Below are positions 3,338 through 50,662 of a stretch of 64,000 bases of DNA, one piece after another. The notes below the pieces were generated by a model that searched no databases, was not told where the DNA came from, and worked only from the letters and a program-made list of their open reading frames with translations. The position numbers and the translations under genes are program-made. Within the stretch, counting starts at the first letter, position 1; each line of letters starts with the position of its first letter. The stretch lies in the IMG/VR virus record IMGVR_UViG_3300015371_000003, positions 1-64,000 of that record, one strand, 5' to 3'. The DNA is from a virus.

Positions 3338-3976
3338 ATGGCCTTCGAACGCTTCGTCTCTCTCGGTGAAGAACGCTTTGATAAAATCATCAATGCCCTG
3401 ACGCGGGGCACGCCTGCCCTTCGACTTGCGAGGGAAATTCAGCAGCAACCACCCGAAGGGTGGGGGTTGTTTCAGGACGTAGCCGAATCGTCGCTGATGG
3501 TGCAACTCTGCCGCCTCCGTACGGCGATTGCCGAAGGCGTCTTCAGCAAACGCATCGCAAAGCAGTTGGCCGCAGGGACCAATACCCCCAAGTTGGGGAC
3601 GCTGCAACGAGTGTCCGTCCAAGTCTTGAGTCGTATGGAGGATCTGGCGGATCAGCACAAACAGCGCGTTGAGAATTTTCTGCTCAAAGAGAAAACCCAA
3701 CCCCTCCCATCCAGAACGATGACGGAAGCGATGACCGAATATCGGGAGACGTTGGAACGCATCCAGAAGATTCGGTTCGAACTAGGGTTGGACGAATACA
3801 AAGGCCCAACAGGGAGCAGCACCACCATCCGAGGCGCTTCGCAGACCACGATGTTTCCGGACGGCATGAGCGTACAGAAACAGGTGTTCGAAGCGGTACA
3901 GACCGTGGAGAAGATTCTGGATGCCCGGAAGATTCCTCGCCGCCCGGATCGTCTTGGCTTGAATCCGACCGAATAG
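3338..3976 (+). CDS. putative terminase small subunit
   Basis: Abuts TerL; helical/coiled-coil 212 aa. Positional inference only. Confidence 0.5.
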   Translation: MAFERFVSLGEERFDKIINALTRGTPALRLAREIQQQPPEGWGLFQDVAESSLMVQLCRLRTAIAEGVFSKRIAKQLAAGTNTPKLGTLQRVSVQVLSRMEDLADQHKQRVENFLLKEKTQPLPSRTMTEAMTEYRETLERIQKIRFELGLDEYKGPTGSSTTIRGASQTTMFPDGMSVQKQVFEAVQTVEKILDARKIPRRPDRLGLNPTE

Positions 3977-5977
3977 ATGCTCATTTTCAAGCGGGGGGAA
4001 TCGTGGGTCGAGCAGACCAATCAAGCCCATCTTGATTTGGTCAATGAGCGGGCGTACGCCTACCTCAAGGAATATCTGGGCTACCAAGAAGCCGAGAAGA
4101 TTTGGTTTCAAGGCCAAAGGATCCATGATCTGCACGAGCGGTCGATGTTTTATGCGAATGCCGTGCTGCATGTCGAGGAGCGGTTGCAAGGGCACGAGTC
4201 TACCGCGATCCAAGATTGGGGGCAGTATCGGTGGAAGCCTGTGGGGATCCGAGAATTCATTTGCAGTTCCCACTATCTCAATAAAGAACAGGAAATCTAT
4301 CCCGGCGTGCTGGAAGCGGCGGAAGAACTGAATAACGGCCAGTACGTCGAAGCCATCATGACCGGGGGTATCGGATCGGGGAAGACCACGCTGGCGCTCT
4401 ACACAAATGCTTACCAGTTGTATCTCCTTTCGTGTATGCGCTCCCCCCACAAGCAGTTTGGGCTGGACCCTAGTTCAGAAATCCTGCTGGTCTTCCAGAG
4501 CATGACGCTCCAACTCGCCAAAGGCGTTGATTATCAACGCTTCCGGAGCATGATTGAGGGAAGTGCGTACTTTCCGAAGTATTATCCTTTCGACAAGCAT
4601 CTCACGAGCAAGCTGGTGTTCCCGAACCGGGTAGAAGTCGTGCCTGTGGCCGGAACGGAAACTGCCGCAATTGGTCAGAACGTCATGGGCGGGTTGATCG
4701 ATGAGTTGAACTACATGGCCGTTGTCTCCAAGTCCAAAGTGGCGGTGGACAAGGGGACGTATGATCAAGCGGTTCTCCTCTACAATTCGATTGCCCGCCG
4801 CCGCAAAAGCCGGTTCATGGAGAACGGCAAACTCCCCGGCATTCTCTGTCTCGTGTCTTCGAAGAAGTATCCCGGCCAGTTTACCGATCAGAAGGTGCTG
4901 GAAGCCCAACGCGACAAAACCATCTTCGTCTACGACAAGCGGGTGTGGGATACCAAGCCCGATGACTTCGGGAACCAAGGCTGGTTCTCGGTCTTTGCGG
5001 GGGATCTGACCCGCAAGCCCCGCATTCTGGATGACGAGGAGGTGGTGCAGGATGATGACCGCTCCCTCGTGGTGGCCGTGCCGGAGGAGTTTCGACTCGA
5101 ATTTGAGAAGGATGTGATCAACGCCCTGCGAGAGATTGCGGGCGTCTCTACTCTTGCGAGACATCCCTTCTTCCTTGAAGTCAACAAGGTGCATCTGGCG
5201 TTCACGCCGAGGGAATCCATTTTCTCGCAACCGGTGGTGGATTTTGTCGATCAACGACTCACCCTCCTGAAGCGCAATTTTTGGAATCCGGAAATCCCCC
5301 GCTTCGCCCATTGTGACTTAGCCCTGACGGGCGATAGCGCAGGACTCGCCATCGGCACCGTGAGTGGCTTCAAGAGCGTATCGAGCGATCCGAAGCAGCC
5401 CGCGTATATGCCGAAGATTCACGTGGATGGGGTGCTCGAAATCCGGCCTCCCAAGAACTGTGAAATCCTCTTGGGGAAAATTCGAGAGGTCATCATTGTC
5501 CTGAAGCGCATGGGCCTGAACATCATCTGGGTGACGTTCGATCAGTTTCAATCCAGTGATAGTCAACAGATTTTGCGGCAGCAGGGGTTGATCACTGGTC
5601 ATCAAAGCATGGATGAAATCCCGAATCGCCCCTACGATTTTACCAAGACCGCTGTCTACGAAGGCCGCATGGACATTCCCATCGCTCCCAAATTGCAGAT
5701 GGAAATGTTGATGCTGGAGAAGGATGTAAAGACAGGCCGAGTCGATCATCCTCCCGGTGCGAGCAAGGACTTATCAGACGCCTTAGCGGGGATTACGTTT
5801 GGCTTGACGATGCGGCGGGAGCTATGGGGACTCTACAGAATCCCGGTTCTCATGATTCCGCAGTCTGTCTATGCCTCTGCCGATAAGTTGAAGAAGCCGG
5901 AGTCTCAACCCACCTACCAGAGCGAAGCGGAGTTGAGTCTGGTGATGCAGGACGGCGCACGCGAAACGCCGCTCTAA
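3977..5977 (+). CDS. terL: terminase large subunit
   Basis: Walker A GGIGSGKT, Walker B GLIDELN, RNase H-like AHCDLA, C-terminal VDHPPGASKDLSDA. Confidence 0.92.
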   Translation: MLIFKRGESWVEQTNQAHLDLVNERAYAYLKEYLGYQEAEKIWFQGQRIHDLHERSMFYANAVLHVEERLQGHESTAIQDWGQYRWKPVGIREFICSSHYLNKEQEIYPGVLEAAEELNNGQYVEAIMTGGIGSGKTTLALYTNAYQLYLLSCMRSPHKQFGLDPSSEILLVFQSMTLQLAKGVDYQRFRSMIEGSAYFPKYYPFDKHLTSKLVFPNRVEVVPVAGTETAAIGQNVMGGLIDELNYMAVVSKSKVAVDKGTYDQAVLLYNSIARRRKSRFMENGKLPGILCLVSSKKYPGQFTDQKVLEAQRDKTIFVYDKRVWDTKPDDFGNQGWFSVFAGDLTRKPRILDDEEVVQDDDRSLVVAVPEEFRLEFEKDVINALREIAGVSTLARHPFFLEVNKVHLAFTPRESIFSQPVVDFVDQRLTLLKRNFWNPEIPRFAHCDLALTGDSAGLAIGTVSGFKSVSSDPKQPAYMPKIHVDGVLEIRPPKNCEILLGKIREVIIVLKRMGLNIIWVTFDQFQSSDSQQILRQQGLITGHQSMDEIPNRPYDFTKTAVYEGRMDIPIAPKLQMEMLMLEKDVKTGRVDHPPGASKDLSDALAGITFGLTMRRELWGLYRIPVLMIPQSVYASADKLKKPESQPTYQSEAELSLVMQDGARETPL

Positions 5978-46434: not shown

Positions 46435-47185
46435 TGATCTGCCGGGATGCGATCCGATTGGAGTCGGCGGCGGCACAGCACGAACTGAAGCTGCTCGAAT
46501 CGATGCAGGTCGGGGGCACCCGGCGAGGGGTGCTTCTTCCGGCCCTCTCCGTGGGGGTGGAGTGGACCCTGATGACGGCCAAGCCGGGGTACTGGGAATT
46601 CGACGGCACGTTTTTCGGTCAGCCGTTCTACCGGCTGGTCATTCGCACGGATGCGGGGTTGCTGACGCTCGAAGTGCAGGAGGCCAAGTAATGGATCTGG
46701 CGTATTTCGCGGCGGATACCCTTGGGGTGACGCTCTACCAAATTGGGGACACGTTGACGGCCAACGAGGTGCGCCAGACGGCACTCGGGCCATGGACGCT
46801 GGATCTGCCGATGGATGTGGAGTCCGATATCCTCTCCGGCACTGAGCTAGGCTTCTGGGTCACGCTTGGCAAGCAATTGCACCTCTACGTGGTCGTGCGG
46901 GAGAAGGAGAACTGGCTGTTCGTCCTGAACCACACGAAGCTGGCGGACTGCGAGCAACAGACCCTGTTCGAAGCCCAGACCATCATCGGACGGCTGAAGG
47001 AATTCAAACCGGCTATTGTGGGCGTGTTTGAGTGGGGTGACAACGAGTGGACCCAAGTCAAGTATGATGGGGGCGGGAGCGAGCATGCTGACGATCTGGA
47101 CGAAGGGTCTTCCGAACAAGGTACTGCAAGCGTTCTCCCCGGTGCTGCGTTCGGTACCGCATCTGCCCGTCCACGTCGTCAGTGA
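46431..47185 (+). other. two hypothetical genes (46431-46691, 46691-47185)
   Basis: Coupled ORFs upstream of the polymerase. Confidence 0.55.
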
Positions 47186-50100
47186 TTTTACCGTCCCCGC
47201 TGGCACCAAGACCATCTTGGCGCTTGGCGGGGATTCTCTCAAGCAACTCCAAACCGAAAAGGTGATCGCCAAGAACCGGACGATCACCGCCTACCGGACC
47301 CTCCCGCAAATGCGGGGCGGCGTGCCGGTGCTCATCAGCTACGATTCGAGCATCGGAGAGATTGATTACGGCTACCACGTCGATCTGTTGACGGACGTGA
47401 CGCTGGCGATTCGGTTTTGTCTGACCGGCAACTGGAAACCCGCCTACGGCAAGTATCGCTACGTCCCTGACTTCGCGGAGCTATGCACGTCGATTGAGCA
47501 GCAGCACAAGGCGACCGGCAAACCGGTGGACGTGGCGAAGGATCTGGAAACGTTGGGGCTGGATCCGTATGCCCTCCCCTCCCTGAATCCTCTCTACCCC
47601 GGTGCCTACATCGTGACCATGCAGGCCACGCACCAAGCGGGCACCGCAGATGTAGTGCGCTTCAGTAATCGGGAACACGAGACGGAACGTTTACAAGATC
47701 AGACACTTCGTGAGCAGATTGAGTTTCTGTTGCGCTGTCCCTACGTGCGGCTGAAGGGGGCGAATTTCAAATACGATTTGCATTGGCTGTGGAAGCGGGG
47801 CGGCTTTACCTGTTCCACGTTCTGTTTTGATACCACTATCGTTGGCTCGCTGCTGGATGAGAACCGGTCCAACTCCCTCGACACGCACACCAAGATTTAC
47901 GTGCCGTCGTTGGGTGGGTATGCAGACGTGTTCAACGCGACGGTGGACAAGAGTCGCATGGATCAAGTTCCACCGGATCAACTTCTCCCGTATGCGGGCG
48001 GCGACGTGGATGCGGATCTACAGGTGGCGGCAGCACAGAAGTCGGAACTACTCCGAGACAAGCAACTCACCTCGTTCTACGTGAACATCCTCCACCCGGC
48101 AGCACGGGCCTTCGAATGGGTGGAGCAAGGGGGTGTCCTTGTCGATCTGCCTGCCTTTCAGGAACTGAAGGCAGATTTGGAGCAGGAGCACCAACGGCTG
48201 GTCAAAGAGGCGTGCAAGATCATGGGCGGGCGCATCGTGGCGAAGCACGGTTACATGGTGGACCCCGGTGGTTTCAATCTCACCAAGGCGTCCATGCTCT
48301 GTGACTTCATGTTCAGTCCGATGGGGCTGAATCTGAAACCGCAGATGTATACGGCGAAGCCCGATAAGGATGGGATCAAACGCCCCTCGACGGCAATGGA
48401 ACACCTTGAGATGTTTGCGGAGGTGCCGGAGGCCAAAGCCTTCGTGGAGATTATCCGTGAAGACTCTGGGGTGATGAAGACGTATAACACCTATGTGGTA
48501 GGGTTCTTGGAACATCTCAGGTCGGACGGACGCTTTCACCCCACGTATTATTTGTTCGTAGGCAACCGGGATGACGGGGAAGGCGGGGCCAAGACGGGGC
48601 GGCTCTCCTGTAAAGCTCCGGCCTTCCAGTGTTGCGTGGGCGAGACAGAAGTGGTCACGAATCAGGGGTCACGATGTATTGATTGGTTGGTGGAGCAACG
48701 GGGAGCAGGACTCCATGTGCTGAGCCATACCGGGCAGTGGCAACCGATTGTAGACGTGCATCGAAATGGCGTCCAGCCAGTGTTTCGTGTGAGCACGGTT
48801 AGTGGTCGTGCAATTGACTGCACGGCAAACCATCCGTTGTTGACGCCTGTTGGGTGGGTAAGAACAGATCAGTTGGTGGTGGGGGATCGCTGTTATGTCA
48901 CTCGGACACCGCACGCAACATTACACGAGTCCGACGTATTACTCGTGGAGCGCGATGAAGAATCGTTGCTTGTCGAAGACATCGAAAGATTGGTCCAAGT
49001 ATGGGGGGCGTGGGATCAAAGTGTGCCCTCAGTGGATGACCTTCGAAGGCTTCTTGAACAACATGGGCGAGAAGCCGGGGAAGGGATGGTCTATCGAGCG
49101 GAAAGACGTAAACGGGAATTACGAACCGGGCAATTGTTACTGGGCGACATTGAAGGAGCAGGGCAGCAATCGTCGGAATACCAAATGGATTACATTCGAG
49201 AACAAGACGCAGACCGAGGCGCAGTGGGCGCGGGAGTACGGGATTTCCAGAGGCCGGTTGCATTACCGGCTCTCGATTGGCCTTCCGATGGAGCAAGCAC
49301 TGATGAAGACTACCCGCCCGACCGGAGTGTCTTCCAAGAAGACTGCATCGTTTCTATCGAACCAGTAGGTGAGCGAGAGACGTTTGATTTGACCATTGAA
49401 GGCAGTCATTCGTTCATAGCGAACGGGATTGCGGTCCACAACACGGTGCCCAAGCACACCAAGTACGCACAGCGAATCCGGCGTTGTTATCCGGCTCCAC
49501 CCGGATACGTGGTTGTGGAGCGGGATTACGGACAAGGGGAGCTACGGGTCATTGCGTGCGTAGCCCACGAGACGGGCATGCTGGCGGTGTTCAAAGCAGG
49601 CCGGGACATTCACGCAGACACCGCAGCCCCCTTCTCCGGCTTCACGTATGAGAAGCTGATGGCGTTGGAGGCGACGGATCCCCACACCTTCGAAGAAACG
49701 CGGCAGCTTGGCAAGGCAGGCAATTTTGGGTTGTGCTTCGGCATGAAGGAAGATGGGTTTGTCATCTACGCACGGGTGAACTACGGGGTGAACCTCTCGT
49801 GGGATGAGGCGCACGATTTTCGAAACGGGTTCTTCAAGAAGTACCCGCAACTGCTGGTCTATCACGAGTGGGCCAAGTCGTATGCGCGGCAACACAAATT
49901 CATTCGAACCCCCCTTGGACGGCTGAGACACCTCCCCCTGATCAAGAGTCCCAATCGAGAAGTGGCGGCAAAGGCGGAGCGGCAGGCCATCAACAGTCCG
50001 ATTCAAGGGTGCCTCACGGATATGGGCCTGTGGACGATAGCGTTGGAGCAACAGTCCGGGTTGGCAGAGATTGCGCCATGCTTCGGAGCCTGCCATGATT

Positions 50101-50276
50101 CCCTCATGAACTACGTGCCGGAGGATCGGGTGGATGAGATTGTGACGCGCCAACTGGACCAAATGGAATCGTTACCCTTTGAGAAAGTAGGTTGGCAACC
50201 TCAATTGACGTTTGTTGCGGATGCAAGAGTAGGAAAAAATTGGGGGGATATGACGAAATTCAAGAGGAAGAAATGA
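47085..50276 (+). CDS. polA: family A DNA polymerase (UDG-like N-terminal remnant, 3'-5' exonuclease, intein)
   Basis: DLETLG, NFKYD, YAGGD; TGRLS; DYGQGELR (A), KAGNFGLCFG (B), HDS (C). Confidence 0.93.
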   Translation: MLTIWTKGLPNKVLQAFSPVLRSVPHLPVHVVSDFTVPAGTKTILALGGDSLKQLQTEKVIAKNRTITAYRTLPQMRGGVPVLISYDSSIGEIDYGYHVDLLTDVTLAIRFCLTGNWKPAYGKYRYVPDFAELCTSIEQQHKATGKPVDVAKDLETLGLDPYALPSLNPLYPGAYIVTMQATHQAGTADVVRFSNREHETERLQDQTLREQIEFLLRCPYVRLKGANFKYDLHWLWKRGGFTCSTFCFDTTIVGSLLDENRSNSLDTHTKIYVPSLGGYADVFNATVDKSRMDQVPPDQLLPYAGGDVDADLQVAAAQKSELLRDKQLTSFYVNILHPAARAFEWVEQGGVLVDLPAFQELKADLEQEHQRLVKEACKIMGGRIVAKHGYMVDPGGFNLTKASMLCDFMFSPMGLNLKPQMYTAKPDKDGIKRPSTAMEHLEMFAEVPEAKAFVEIIREDSGVMKTYNTYVVGFLEHLRSDGRFHPTYYLFVGNRDDGEGGAKTGRLSCKAPAFQCCVGETEVVTNQGSRCIDWLVEQRGAGLHVLSHTGQWQPIVDVHRNGVQPVFRVSTVSGRAIDCTANHPLLTPVGWVRTDQLVVGDRCYVTRTPHATLHESDVLLVERDEESLLVEDIERLVQVWGAWDQSVPSVDDLRRLLEQHGREAGEGMVYRAERRKRELRTGQLLLGDIEGAGQQSSEYQMDYIREQDADRGAVGAGVRDFQRPVALPALDWPSDGASTDEDYPPDRSVFQEDCIVSIEPVGERETFDLTIEGSHSFIANGIAVHNTVPKHTKYAQRIRRCYPAPPGYVVVERDYGQGELRVIACVAHETGMLAVFKAGRDIHADTAAPFSGFTYEKLMALEATDPHTFEETRQLGKAGNFGLCFGMKEDGFVIYARVNYGVNLSWDEAHDFRNGFFKKYPQLLVYHEWAKSYARQHKFIRTPLGRLRHLPLIKSPNREVAAKAERQAINSPIQGCLTDMGLWTIALEQQSGLAEIAPCFGACHDSLMNYVPEDRVDEIVTRQLDQMESLPFEKVGWQPQLTFVADARVGKNWGDMTKFKRKK
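48630..49442 (+). mobile_element. intein (271 aa) in DNA polymerase
   Basis: AFQ|CCVGETEV...CTANHP...TFDLTIEGSHSFIANGIAVHN|TVP; splicing restores a PAFQTVP motif. Confidence 0.92.
48895..49368 (+). CDS. HNH homing endonuclease overprinted in the +1 frame inside the intein
   Basis: YYSW.AMKNRC...YGGRGIKVC..W..F..F...MG...SIER.D.NGNYEPGNC.WAT..EQ..NRR; GGGGGA 8 nt upstream. Confidence 0.88.
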   Translation: MSLGHRTQHYTSPTYYSWSAMKNRCLSKTSKDWSKYGGRGIKVCPQWMTFEGFLNNMGEKPGKGWSIERKDVNGNYEPGNCYWATLKEQGSNRRNTKWITFENKTQTEAQWAREYGISRGRLHYRLSIGLPMEQALMKTTRPTGVSSKKTASFLSNQ

Positions 50277-50662
50277 AGGGCATCCACAGCATGACCTTGG
50301 CAGAGCGAATCATAGCTAAGACTAAAGTGAACGAGAACGGGTGTCGGCTGTGGCAGGAGTCCTTACTGAAGGACGGCTATGCGCTGATTCGGTACAAAGG
50401 GAAAAAAATTACCGTGCATCGGGCGGCGTGGATGGCTTTCAAAGGTCCAATTCCAGACGGCATGTCGGTGTTGCATTCGTGTGATATTCGACATTGCACG
50501 GCTGAGGAGCATTTGTTTTTAGGAACCTATGCTGATAACTCGAAAGATGCTGTGACGAAAGGGAGACAAAAGAATTTATTTCCGAGTGGTGATCTGCATC
50601 CGAATAGGATTAAAAAACTCAAGAAATTGCAGCGGTTGACAAGACTGAGAGAGTTGGGTTAG
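50273..50662 (+). mobile_element. free-standing HNH endonuclease
   Basis: GC.LW...DGY...VHRAAW...GPIPDG..VLHSCD...C....HLFLGT..DN..D...KGR; lower GC; ATGA overlap with pol stop. Confidence 0.88.

Follow-up and report, generated by a model that had tools for sequence, protein, structure and literature searches.

A putative endonuclease gene overprinted in the +1 frame of a phage DNA polymerase mini-intein

The family A DNA polymerase gene of IMG/VR virus IMGVR_UViG_3300015371_000003 (positions 1 to 64,000 of this record, i.e., the whole 64,000-nucleotide stretch analysed here, are called the window below) is interrupted by a class-1 mini-intein, inside which lies, in the +1 frame, a second open reading frame (ORF) resembling phage homing endonucleases. 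The interpretation we favour, and hold with good confidence, is that a separate endonuclease gene is overprinted in the +1 frame within this intein, the two making up a composite selfish element. An earlier, sequence-only reading of the window had proposed a free-standing-type gene inside a mini-intein with 474 dual-coding nucleotides, and this is upheld by the occurrence of the layout in at least 13 lineages, by the +1 periodicity of the overlap, by its avoidance of stop codons and by the conservation of ATG and Shine-Dalgarno-like (SD-like) sequence. The coordinates it gave were exact when set against the ORF list, Pfam and PHROG (intein at 48630-49442, open for 271 codons; +1 ORF at 48895-49368, with its own ATG and a GGGGGA). 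The overlap starts at intein nucleotide 265 and ends in block F, the stop codon of the ORF lying within the C-terminal splicing domain.

According to the favoured interpretation, a free-standing-type gene, read one base to the right of the frame of the polymerase, would fill the slot for an endonuclease in a mini-intein that sits in a conserved motif of this enzyme. During translation of the polymerase, the 474-nt overlap would be read as a disordered loop of ~130 residues, to be removed with the intein on splicing, whilst a small share of ribosomes would start at the ATG behind the SD-like GGGGGA and make the 157-aa protein. As the distribution and phylogeny of the element suggest, this protein most likely would bind and cut intein-less alleles at ..CCTTCCAG/ACGGTGCC.. 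in co-infection (here and below the slash marks the insertion point), and the ensuing repair would copy intein and gene together. Selection would then act on the sequence of the +1-frame protein, the host frame (i.e., that of intein and polymerase) being constrained only against stop codons. Expression, splicing and cleavage are what we infer from the comparisons that follow.

Double coding within the intein

The same +1 layout is found in at least 13 diverged viral and metagenomic lineages, at the same ..P-A-x-Q/T-[VIL]-P-K.. site of the polymerase. After removal of duplicates these are the window, L001, L002, L003, L007, L086-L090 and L125, together with L109 and L130, which carry a longer form of the ORF with a zinc-ribbon-like N-terminal extension; they were gathered by a search with the +1 protein and then by a search with the intein alignment. 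Searching IMG/VR with the single intein sequence returned no relative, whereas the alignment-based search succeeded. Nucleotide identity over the ORF is 52-76% in the ten short-type lineages compared, and this depth of divergence argues for overprinting as a long-lived stable state rather than the ‘intermediate’ on the way to intein-endonuclease fusion that the sequence-only reading had named as one of two possibilities. In the window itself, Logan contigs of four runs from the rhizosphere agree with 48447-48927, 48713-49065 and 49010-49396 at every letter and without gaps, both ends of the ORF being spanned.

None of the embedded copies has a stop codon in the host frame, which in every case belongs to an ORF of roughly 400-1450 codons (varying with the extent of the contig), whereas about 70 free-standing homologues have 1-18 stops in the equivalent frame. 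When the codons of the window's +1 ORF were shuffled synonymously, the host frame received 6.1 stops on average, and none of 1000 shuffles was free of them. The mode of avoidance is visible in the third codon positions of the embedded genes, 12 of which were counted: T occurs there before AA, AG or GA codons in 0 of 543 cases vs 313 of 1348 elsewhere. A host-frame stop requires T at this position, and under the standard code every change from NNT to NNC is silent, so that the host frame can be kept open without cost to the +1 protein. One more candidate, L079, which has few host-frame stops, was rejected; it is not embedded, and represents an ordinary free-standing copy in a GC-rich phage.

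The distribution of variability also follows the endonuclease frame. Mean pairwise mismatch in the overlap is.30/.25/.56 at positions 1/2/3 of the +1 ORF, and mean amino acid identity across lineages is 65% in this frame vs 35% in the host frame. Followed along the intein, variability peaks at the third host position in residues 1-88 and 247-271 and at the first (i.e., the third of the +1 ORF) in residues 95-240 (values in Table 1), the switches of frame occurring at residues ~89 and ~240. This comparison of frames favours the proposal of the sequence-only reading, and points to purifying selection on the endonuclease frame, not the host frame, in the overlap. The peptide encoded there by the host frame, here called the shadow peptide, is an open but unselected read-through of the endonuclease gene.

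The flanking intein sequences, by their residues and fold, belong to a class-1 intein of the HINT type. The intein opens with TGT (Cys) at 48630 and closes with AAC (Asn) at 49442; its Cys1, T-A-N-H of block B, terminal ..VHN and Thr+1 are invariant in 11 aligned loci (T65, H68, H270 and N271 in intein numbering, with the +1 Thr present in every polymerase locus), and ETFDLT..SHSF..VHN is conserved in its C-terminal domain. An AlphaFold run on the intein alignment orders residues 1-93 and 224-271 with a predicted local distance difference test score (pLDDT) of 84-95, leaving residues 94-223 below 50 and nearly without secondary structure. This, together with the lack of any Pfam domain in the shadow peptide, agrees with the earlier impression that it looks like no known domain. 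The ordered part was matched by Foldseek to the Ssp DnaB, Npu DnaB and Mtu RecA mini-inteins, with E values of 1e-8 to 4e-9 and template modelling (TM) scores of 0.77-0.87. Protein splicing is probable, given that these residues are intact and that the polymerase motif which the intein interrupts is both essential and conserved.

Start signals for the +1 ORF are built from the codons of the host frame, specifically from the intein's conserved G-D-x-x-Y. The ORF is intact and has its ATG in every lineage, this ATG being made of the host Tyr codon TAT and the next G in most of them (GAT and G in L007). A GGRGA-like purine run stands 6-8 nt 5′ of the ATG in all ten short-type polymerase loci listed, whilst the long-type L109 and L070, from another gene, have AGGGG/AAGGG only. 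At the homologous G-D position the Gly codon is GGG or GGA in 8 of the 8 loci that have Gly, the background GGR share being 0.31-0.58; the naive product over nine loci is 3e-4, including L007 with its differently built ATG and without correction for shared ancestry. The +1 frame 5′ of the ATG stays open for 1-27 codons across lineages; the open stretch is of 11 codons in the window, and in L003 a stop closes it after a single codon. This early closure, that of L003 especially, speaks for initiation at the ATG itself rather than for a fusion by frameshifting.

Movement of the element, states of its site and genomic surroundings

The closest polymerases (77-80% identity in the N-extein, 81% in the C-extein) are intein-less, with an uninterrupted ..PAFQTVPKHT.., and the element is sporadically distributed among polymerases. 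The C-extein tree puts the window in a 98/98 clade with five intein-less genes, six intein-bearing genes forming another clade; the tree of the element (i.e., splicing domains plus +1 protein) joins the window with L001 and L086. In an approximately unbiased (AU) test, the element data reject the extein clade (L086, L089) with p 0.008 and the clade (L086, L089, L003, L007) with p 2e-6, and the element has therefore moved between polymerase alleles.

Four states are seen at this one site, namely empty, mini-intein (L128), overprinted, and split intein (L133). The empty junction, a candidate cleavage site, is shown by L104. At 619-1101 of L128 lies a homologous mini-intein of 161 aa, at the same polymerase site, with a linker of ~35 residues and without endonuclease ORF. 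In L133 (1010-4844; L135 is alike) a split intein at this site divides the polymerase into two ORFs. The stop of the first overlaps the start of the second in ATGAATAG, preceded by GAGGGGG, and in both L133 and L135 there is no gene between the halves of the intein. A further intein, in the second ORF of L133, has another +1-frame ORF of the same family (3397-4152).

More than one element may share a polymerase. L002 (45-4364) has three inteins in one polymerase gene, the middle of which lies 12 codons 5′ of the overprinted one (..GGTN/C...THN/TGRLS..) and has an in-frame endonuclease of the NUMOD4/HNH_3 type, so that the canonical and overprinted layouts stand side by side. L130, in addition to the copy embedded in its polymerase intein, has a free-standing copy of the same family just 3′ of the polymerase (4657-4902), with 8 stops in the corresponding frame. 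Amongst GTDB representative bacterial genomes, 80 intein loci were found, distant relatives only, mostly at 23-40% whole-intein identity (exceeded only over short conserved blocks), and none of them has an HNH-like ORF.

The same ORF family was met in other host genes. In L070 (2132-4933), and in L072 and L073 too, it occupies the +1 frame of an intein (at ..YDMR/CLRKT.. in L070) in a gene resembling that of the terminase large subunit, a label which for L070 and L025 is an Atlas lead only, neither Pfam nor PHROG giving a match. L025 (1-1686) has a near-identical intein C-terminus at another site, ../CLRLVSARY.., its first site being empty, which suggests that the intein has moved ectopically from one to the other of two sites whose +1 flanks are alike. 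Amongst cultured phages, Ralstonia phage GP4 (L114, MH638294, 3980-4534) and phage Gamede carry an ORF homologous to that of the window within a 3224-aa coding sequence (CDS) annotated ‘DarB-like antirestriction’, again in the +1 frame but with no intein motifs around it; it is a hidden endonuclease in a virion protein gene, of the type described in phage ShiLan (see the last section). A match to the ‘dUTPase’ of Staphylococcus phage PT94 was rejected as an embedded copy, being an in-frame mis-annotation.

As to the surroundings in the window, the genome is a complete IMG/VR virus of 116,229 bp with terminal repeats, in which the phrog_3377-type family is present as one copy. The polymerase gene is listed from a TTG (Table 1), and its true start may be the ATG at 47085, judging from relatives. 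Directly 3′ of it lies a free-standing endonuclease gene of the HNH_3 type (50192-50662, + strand; Pfam PF13392 with E 2e-11, and several PHROG HNH families), which as listed overlaps the final ~85 nt of the polymerase; with the embedded +1 ORF, the locus therefore bears two unrelated endonuclease genes. A near-palindromic motif, TGCAATTGAnTGCA, is strongly enriched: allowing for 3 mismatches at most, the window matches it at 13 places vs 0.6 expected, and there are 24 copies genome-wide, both intergenic and inside ORFs. It could be the site of a regulator or methylase, and the copy that had been noticed upstream of the +1 ORF is indeed there, as a member of this enriched family. Promoter and terminator scanning of 48300-49600 gave one promoter-like site on the minus strand and zero terminators, no more than in shuffles, and no internal promoter is proposed. 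No RNA run is among the public runs listed for the sequence.

Table 1. Features of the polymerase locus in the window (mismatch: mean pairwise, at host codon positions 1/2/3)
Feature	Position	Strand	Details
Family A DNA polymerase gene	47016..50276	+	precursor 1086 aa from TTG 47016; Pfam DNA_pol_A E 6e-49 and DNA_pol_A_exo1
Class-1 intein, 271 codons, stop-free	48630..49442	+	between Gln and Thr of ..KAPAFQ/TVPKHT..; Pfam Intein_splicing PF14890 E 4e-12
N-terminal splicing domain, intein residues 1-93	48630..48908	+	AlphaFold2 (AF2) pLDDT 86-94; mismatch.36/.28/.66, host codon position 3 most variable
Copy of genome-wide motif TGCAATTGAnTGCA, letters GTGCAATTGACTGCAC	48808..48823	.	inside N-terminal splicing domain
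SD-like GGGGGA	48881..48886	+	8 nt 5′ of the ATG of the +1 ORF; made of host Gly-Asp codons
+1-frame ORF, 157 aa, homing-endonuclease-like	48895..49368	+	ATG 48895, TAG 49366-49368; phrog_3377 E 7e-45
Host-frame shadow peptide, residues 94-223	48909..49298	+	AF2 pLDDT <50; mismatch.56/.30/.26; no Pfam domain
C-terminal splicing domain, residues 224-271, blocks F and G	49299..49442	+	AF2 pLDDT 84-95; mismatch.19/.08/.63

The +1-frame protein and the explanations weighed

The +1 protein matches phrog_3377, an ‘HNH endonuclease’ family, over residues 7-144 (E 7.4e-45), and homologues of its ORF, most of them separate genes, occur in 919 phage records with HNH or homing endonuclease annotations. 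Its AF2 fold is confident (pLDDT 90.9) and consists of a PacI/HNH-like domain in residues 1-96 and a C-terminal helix-turn-helix in residues 97-145. The best structural match of the first domain is PacI (3m7k_A; Z 6.6, rmsd 3.1, 82 aa), and residues 97-133 match the DNA-binding domain of I-TevI (Z 2.6, 27% identity). The top Foldseek rows are I-HmuI (first), PacI and Gme HNH, all with E about 1, and a sequence profile of the protein run against the Protein Data Bank (PDB) gave nothing significant. Twelve columns are invariant across 66 family members, with R69, Y76, N80 and N92 amongst the invariant residues. The nearest named Atlas clusters bear NUMOD DNA-binding modules, and some long proteins appear to contain the domain more than once; in-frame intein fusions were sought in ten such long domain-bearing proteins, a limited sample, and none has an intein Pfam match.

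Calling this ORF a complete, recognisable HNH gene, as the sequence-only reading did, is too strong. The only families labelled HNH that match are those of PHROG, whereas Pfam has no HNH model that does, which leaves canonical HNH membership uncertain, and the ‘HNH’ label is to be taken as a reasonable lead. Nuclease activity is putative only, given the Arg at the presumed His position, and the 157-aa protein is best described as a compact candidate module for site-specific DNA binding or cleavage, with an unusual active site.

Several observations speak against the composite selfish element, or at least against parts of it. No Pfam or NCBIfam model, HNH included, matches the +1 protein at E <= 0.1; the Z score of 6.6 with PacI falls in the tool's middling range; the H-N-H histidines are not evident; and it is the invariant Arg69 that would stand at the general-base His position of HNH_3, in an hhalign alignment with the window's own HNH_3 protein that is non-significant (2% probability) and was extended by eye. 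A co-conversion scan of extein identity around the junction, made against seven intein-less relatives, gave no local change, these relatives being too diverged. In addition, the contigs from the four runs may share samples with the assembly, and the lineages have common ancestry, their counts not being independent events.

Given these points, the alternative that survives best, though we think it unlikely, is that the +1 protein is expressed and selected without being a homing nuclease, e.g., as a DNA-binding regulator or as helper of another nuclease. The lack of a canonical HNH model and the invariant Arg at a weakly aligned His position would suit such a role, as would the clear C-terminal helix-turn-helix, the NUMOD modules of the nearest named clusters and the seeming repetition of the domain in long proteins, and the canonical HNH_3 gene abutting the polymerase is a candidate partner. 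Against this stand hundreds of sporadic free-standing copies in unrelated phages, as in a mobile endonuclease gene, as well as embedded copies in different genes and sites and the incongruence of element and exteins. PacI, the best structural match, is termed an HNH enzyme in its PDB titles, and Tyr76, Asn80 and Asn92 of the +1 protein are invariant. In PacI, cleavage is reportedly started by a residue other than His.

Decay of the endonuclease after fixation is what the homing-cycle model foresees, and the mini-intein of L128 and the split intein of L133 show that an endonuclease can be lost from this very site. The +1 ORF might then be an unexpressed, decaying leftover of a former invader, the intein alone mattering. 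We regard this as improbable, since the ORF is intact with its ATG in every lineage, retains 65% mean amino acid identity at 52-76% nucleotide identity with third positions about twice as variable as first and second ones, and has its twelve columns invariant and its SD-like run conserved.

It is more improbable still that a programmed +1 ribosomal frameshift joins the N-terminal intein domain to the HNH domain. In the window the +1 frame is in fact open for some codons 5′ of the ATG, but the length of this open stretch varies between lineages, down to a single codon with the stop of L003; no common slippery motif is evident in the upstream sequences listed; the conserved ATG and SD-like run suit independent initiation; and a return shift too would be required to produce the polymerase.

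Finally, we give hardly any credence to an assembly or sequencing artefact in which two compensating indels put an in-frame endonuclease out of frame: homopolymer errors are conceivable in a single assembly, and a chimeric contig from run X3 has a 33-nt fragment with a 1-nt deletion at 49216, but at least 13 diverged contigs, each assembled independently, have the two frames in this same relation, the contigs of four runs cross both ends of the ORF without gaps, and no artefact can yield the bias of 0/543 at synonymous sites. Of the checks that the sequence-only reading had named, those for such indels and for the same frame arrangement in homologous inteins thus both turn out in its favour.

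Beyond the composite selfish element in the polymerase, one may go further, tentatively and with slightly less than even confidence, and regard the phrog_3377 family as derived from HNH_3, with Arg in place of the catalytic His, and as specialised for the +1 frame of host ORFs. Such an architecture would be long-lived and widespread, with silent T-to-C changes alone keeping the host frame open and host codons supplying the start signals. Its hosts would be inteins of polymerase and terminase-like genes and, without intein, the DarB-like gene of GP4 and probably gp60 of Pacc40.

If true, overprinting would be a general, under-annotated lifestyle of homing endonuclease genes, and at one insertion site four of the states through which mini-intein, split intein and endonuclease-bearing intein have been proposed to be connected would be represented by extant cases. 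The coexistence of four states at one site bears on the model of intein origin in which the splicing domain comes first and the endonuclease invades later, and the lineages compared here give unusually clean comparative evidence that DNA can be shared over long evolution by an intein and a separately translated endonuclease gene. Gene callers miss such ORFs, so homing endonucleases are undercounted, and long inserts called ‘unknown’ in inteins may hide them. The absence of T from third positions of the endonuclease gene before AA, AG and GA codons provides a checkable signature.

Relation to known systems

The sequence-only reading set the layout against the in-frame fusions that are usual for intein endonucleases, but precedents exist, out-of-frame and antisense intein endonucleases having already been published in 1998 and in two preprints of the Gogarten laboratory from 2025 and 2026. 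Gorbalenya (1998), as cited in bioRxiv 10.1101/2025.01.02.630785 and 10.64898/2026.09.14.751524, suggested that the endonuclease of an intein may be encoded in an alternative ORF. Gosselin et al. (bioRxiv 10.1101/2025.01.02.630785) describe 63 non-canonical actinophage inteins, including a same-strand ‘frame 3’ ORF resembling endonuclease VII, and propose invasion of inteins by free-standing endonuclease genes. Their inteins share with that of the window the class-1 type, the essential phage gene as host, the other-frame ORF between splicing blocks and the unstructured read-through. However, their endonuclease is endonuclease VII-like (IPR004211) and in ‘frame 3’, whilst that of the window is phrog_3377/PacI-like and in +1, with no Endonuclease_7 Pfam match; the host polymerase named by them, DNA polymerase III alpha, is not one of family A; and their phages infect actinobacteria, whereas the lineages of the window are uncultured soil and rhizosphere phages.

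Frame-specific selection on an out-of-frame LAGLIDADG endonuclease was reported in a cyanobacterial dnaX intein by Phillips, DeSimone & Gogarten (bioRxiv 10.64898/2026.09.14.751524). There too the ORFs overlap, selection acts on the endonuclease frame with the host frame relaxed, and distribution is sporadic with mini-intein and empty alleles coexisting, but the endonuclease is of the LAGLIDADG type in a ‘+2 ORF’ of a bacterial chromosomal gene, instead of HNH-like and in +1 of a phage polymerase.

Hidden out-of-frame HNH genes of the ShiLan/Pacc40 type, in phage methylase genes without inteins, were described by Arsenault et al. 2025 (PMC11855218), who note that the hidden ORF of Pacc40 is similar to a Tiff81 gene upstream of the helicase-methylase. 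This Tiff81 gene, deposited as gp70, matches the window's ORF at 45% identity, and the Pacc40/Tiff81 endonuclease therefore probably belongs to the same family. These cases resemble the window in having an out-of-frame endonuclease ORF with the host frame open. They differ in that their shadow peptide stays in the host protein, whilst the intein of the window would remove it, and in that the authors found no ribosome-binding site (PMC11855218), whereas an SD-like motif is conserved in the window's family.

In the fractured genes of Dassa 2009 (PMC2677866), whose model includes invasion of inteins by free-standing endonuclease genes, such a gene likewise lies within the DNA that encodes an intein, both of its ends overlapping the adjoining coding sequence for a short distance. 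Their host frame is interrupted, however, and the intein splices in trans, whilst the host frame of the window is continuous; the split version of the window-type intein is found only in L133 and L135 and, unlike in Dassa 2009, has no gene between its halves.

At the level of the protein, the best structural matches, PacI and I-HmuI (HNH/beta-beta-alpha-metal nucleases) and the DNA-binding domain of I-TevI, suggest the company in which the +1 protein may belong, from which it differs in having no significant sequence similarity to any solved structure, in its Foldseek E values of about 1 and in its invariant R69, Y76, N80 and N92. A literature search found no report of this particular polymerase-intein case. 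The architecture as such is thus known though rare; the novelty lies in the family of the endonuclease, in the gene that hosts it, in how many lineages there are and how deeply they diverge, and in the explicit signatures of stop avoidance and of start signals.

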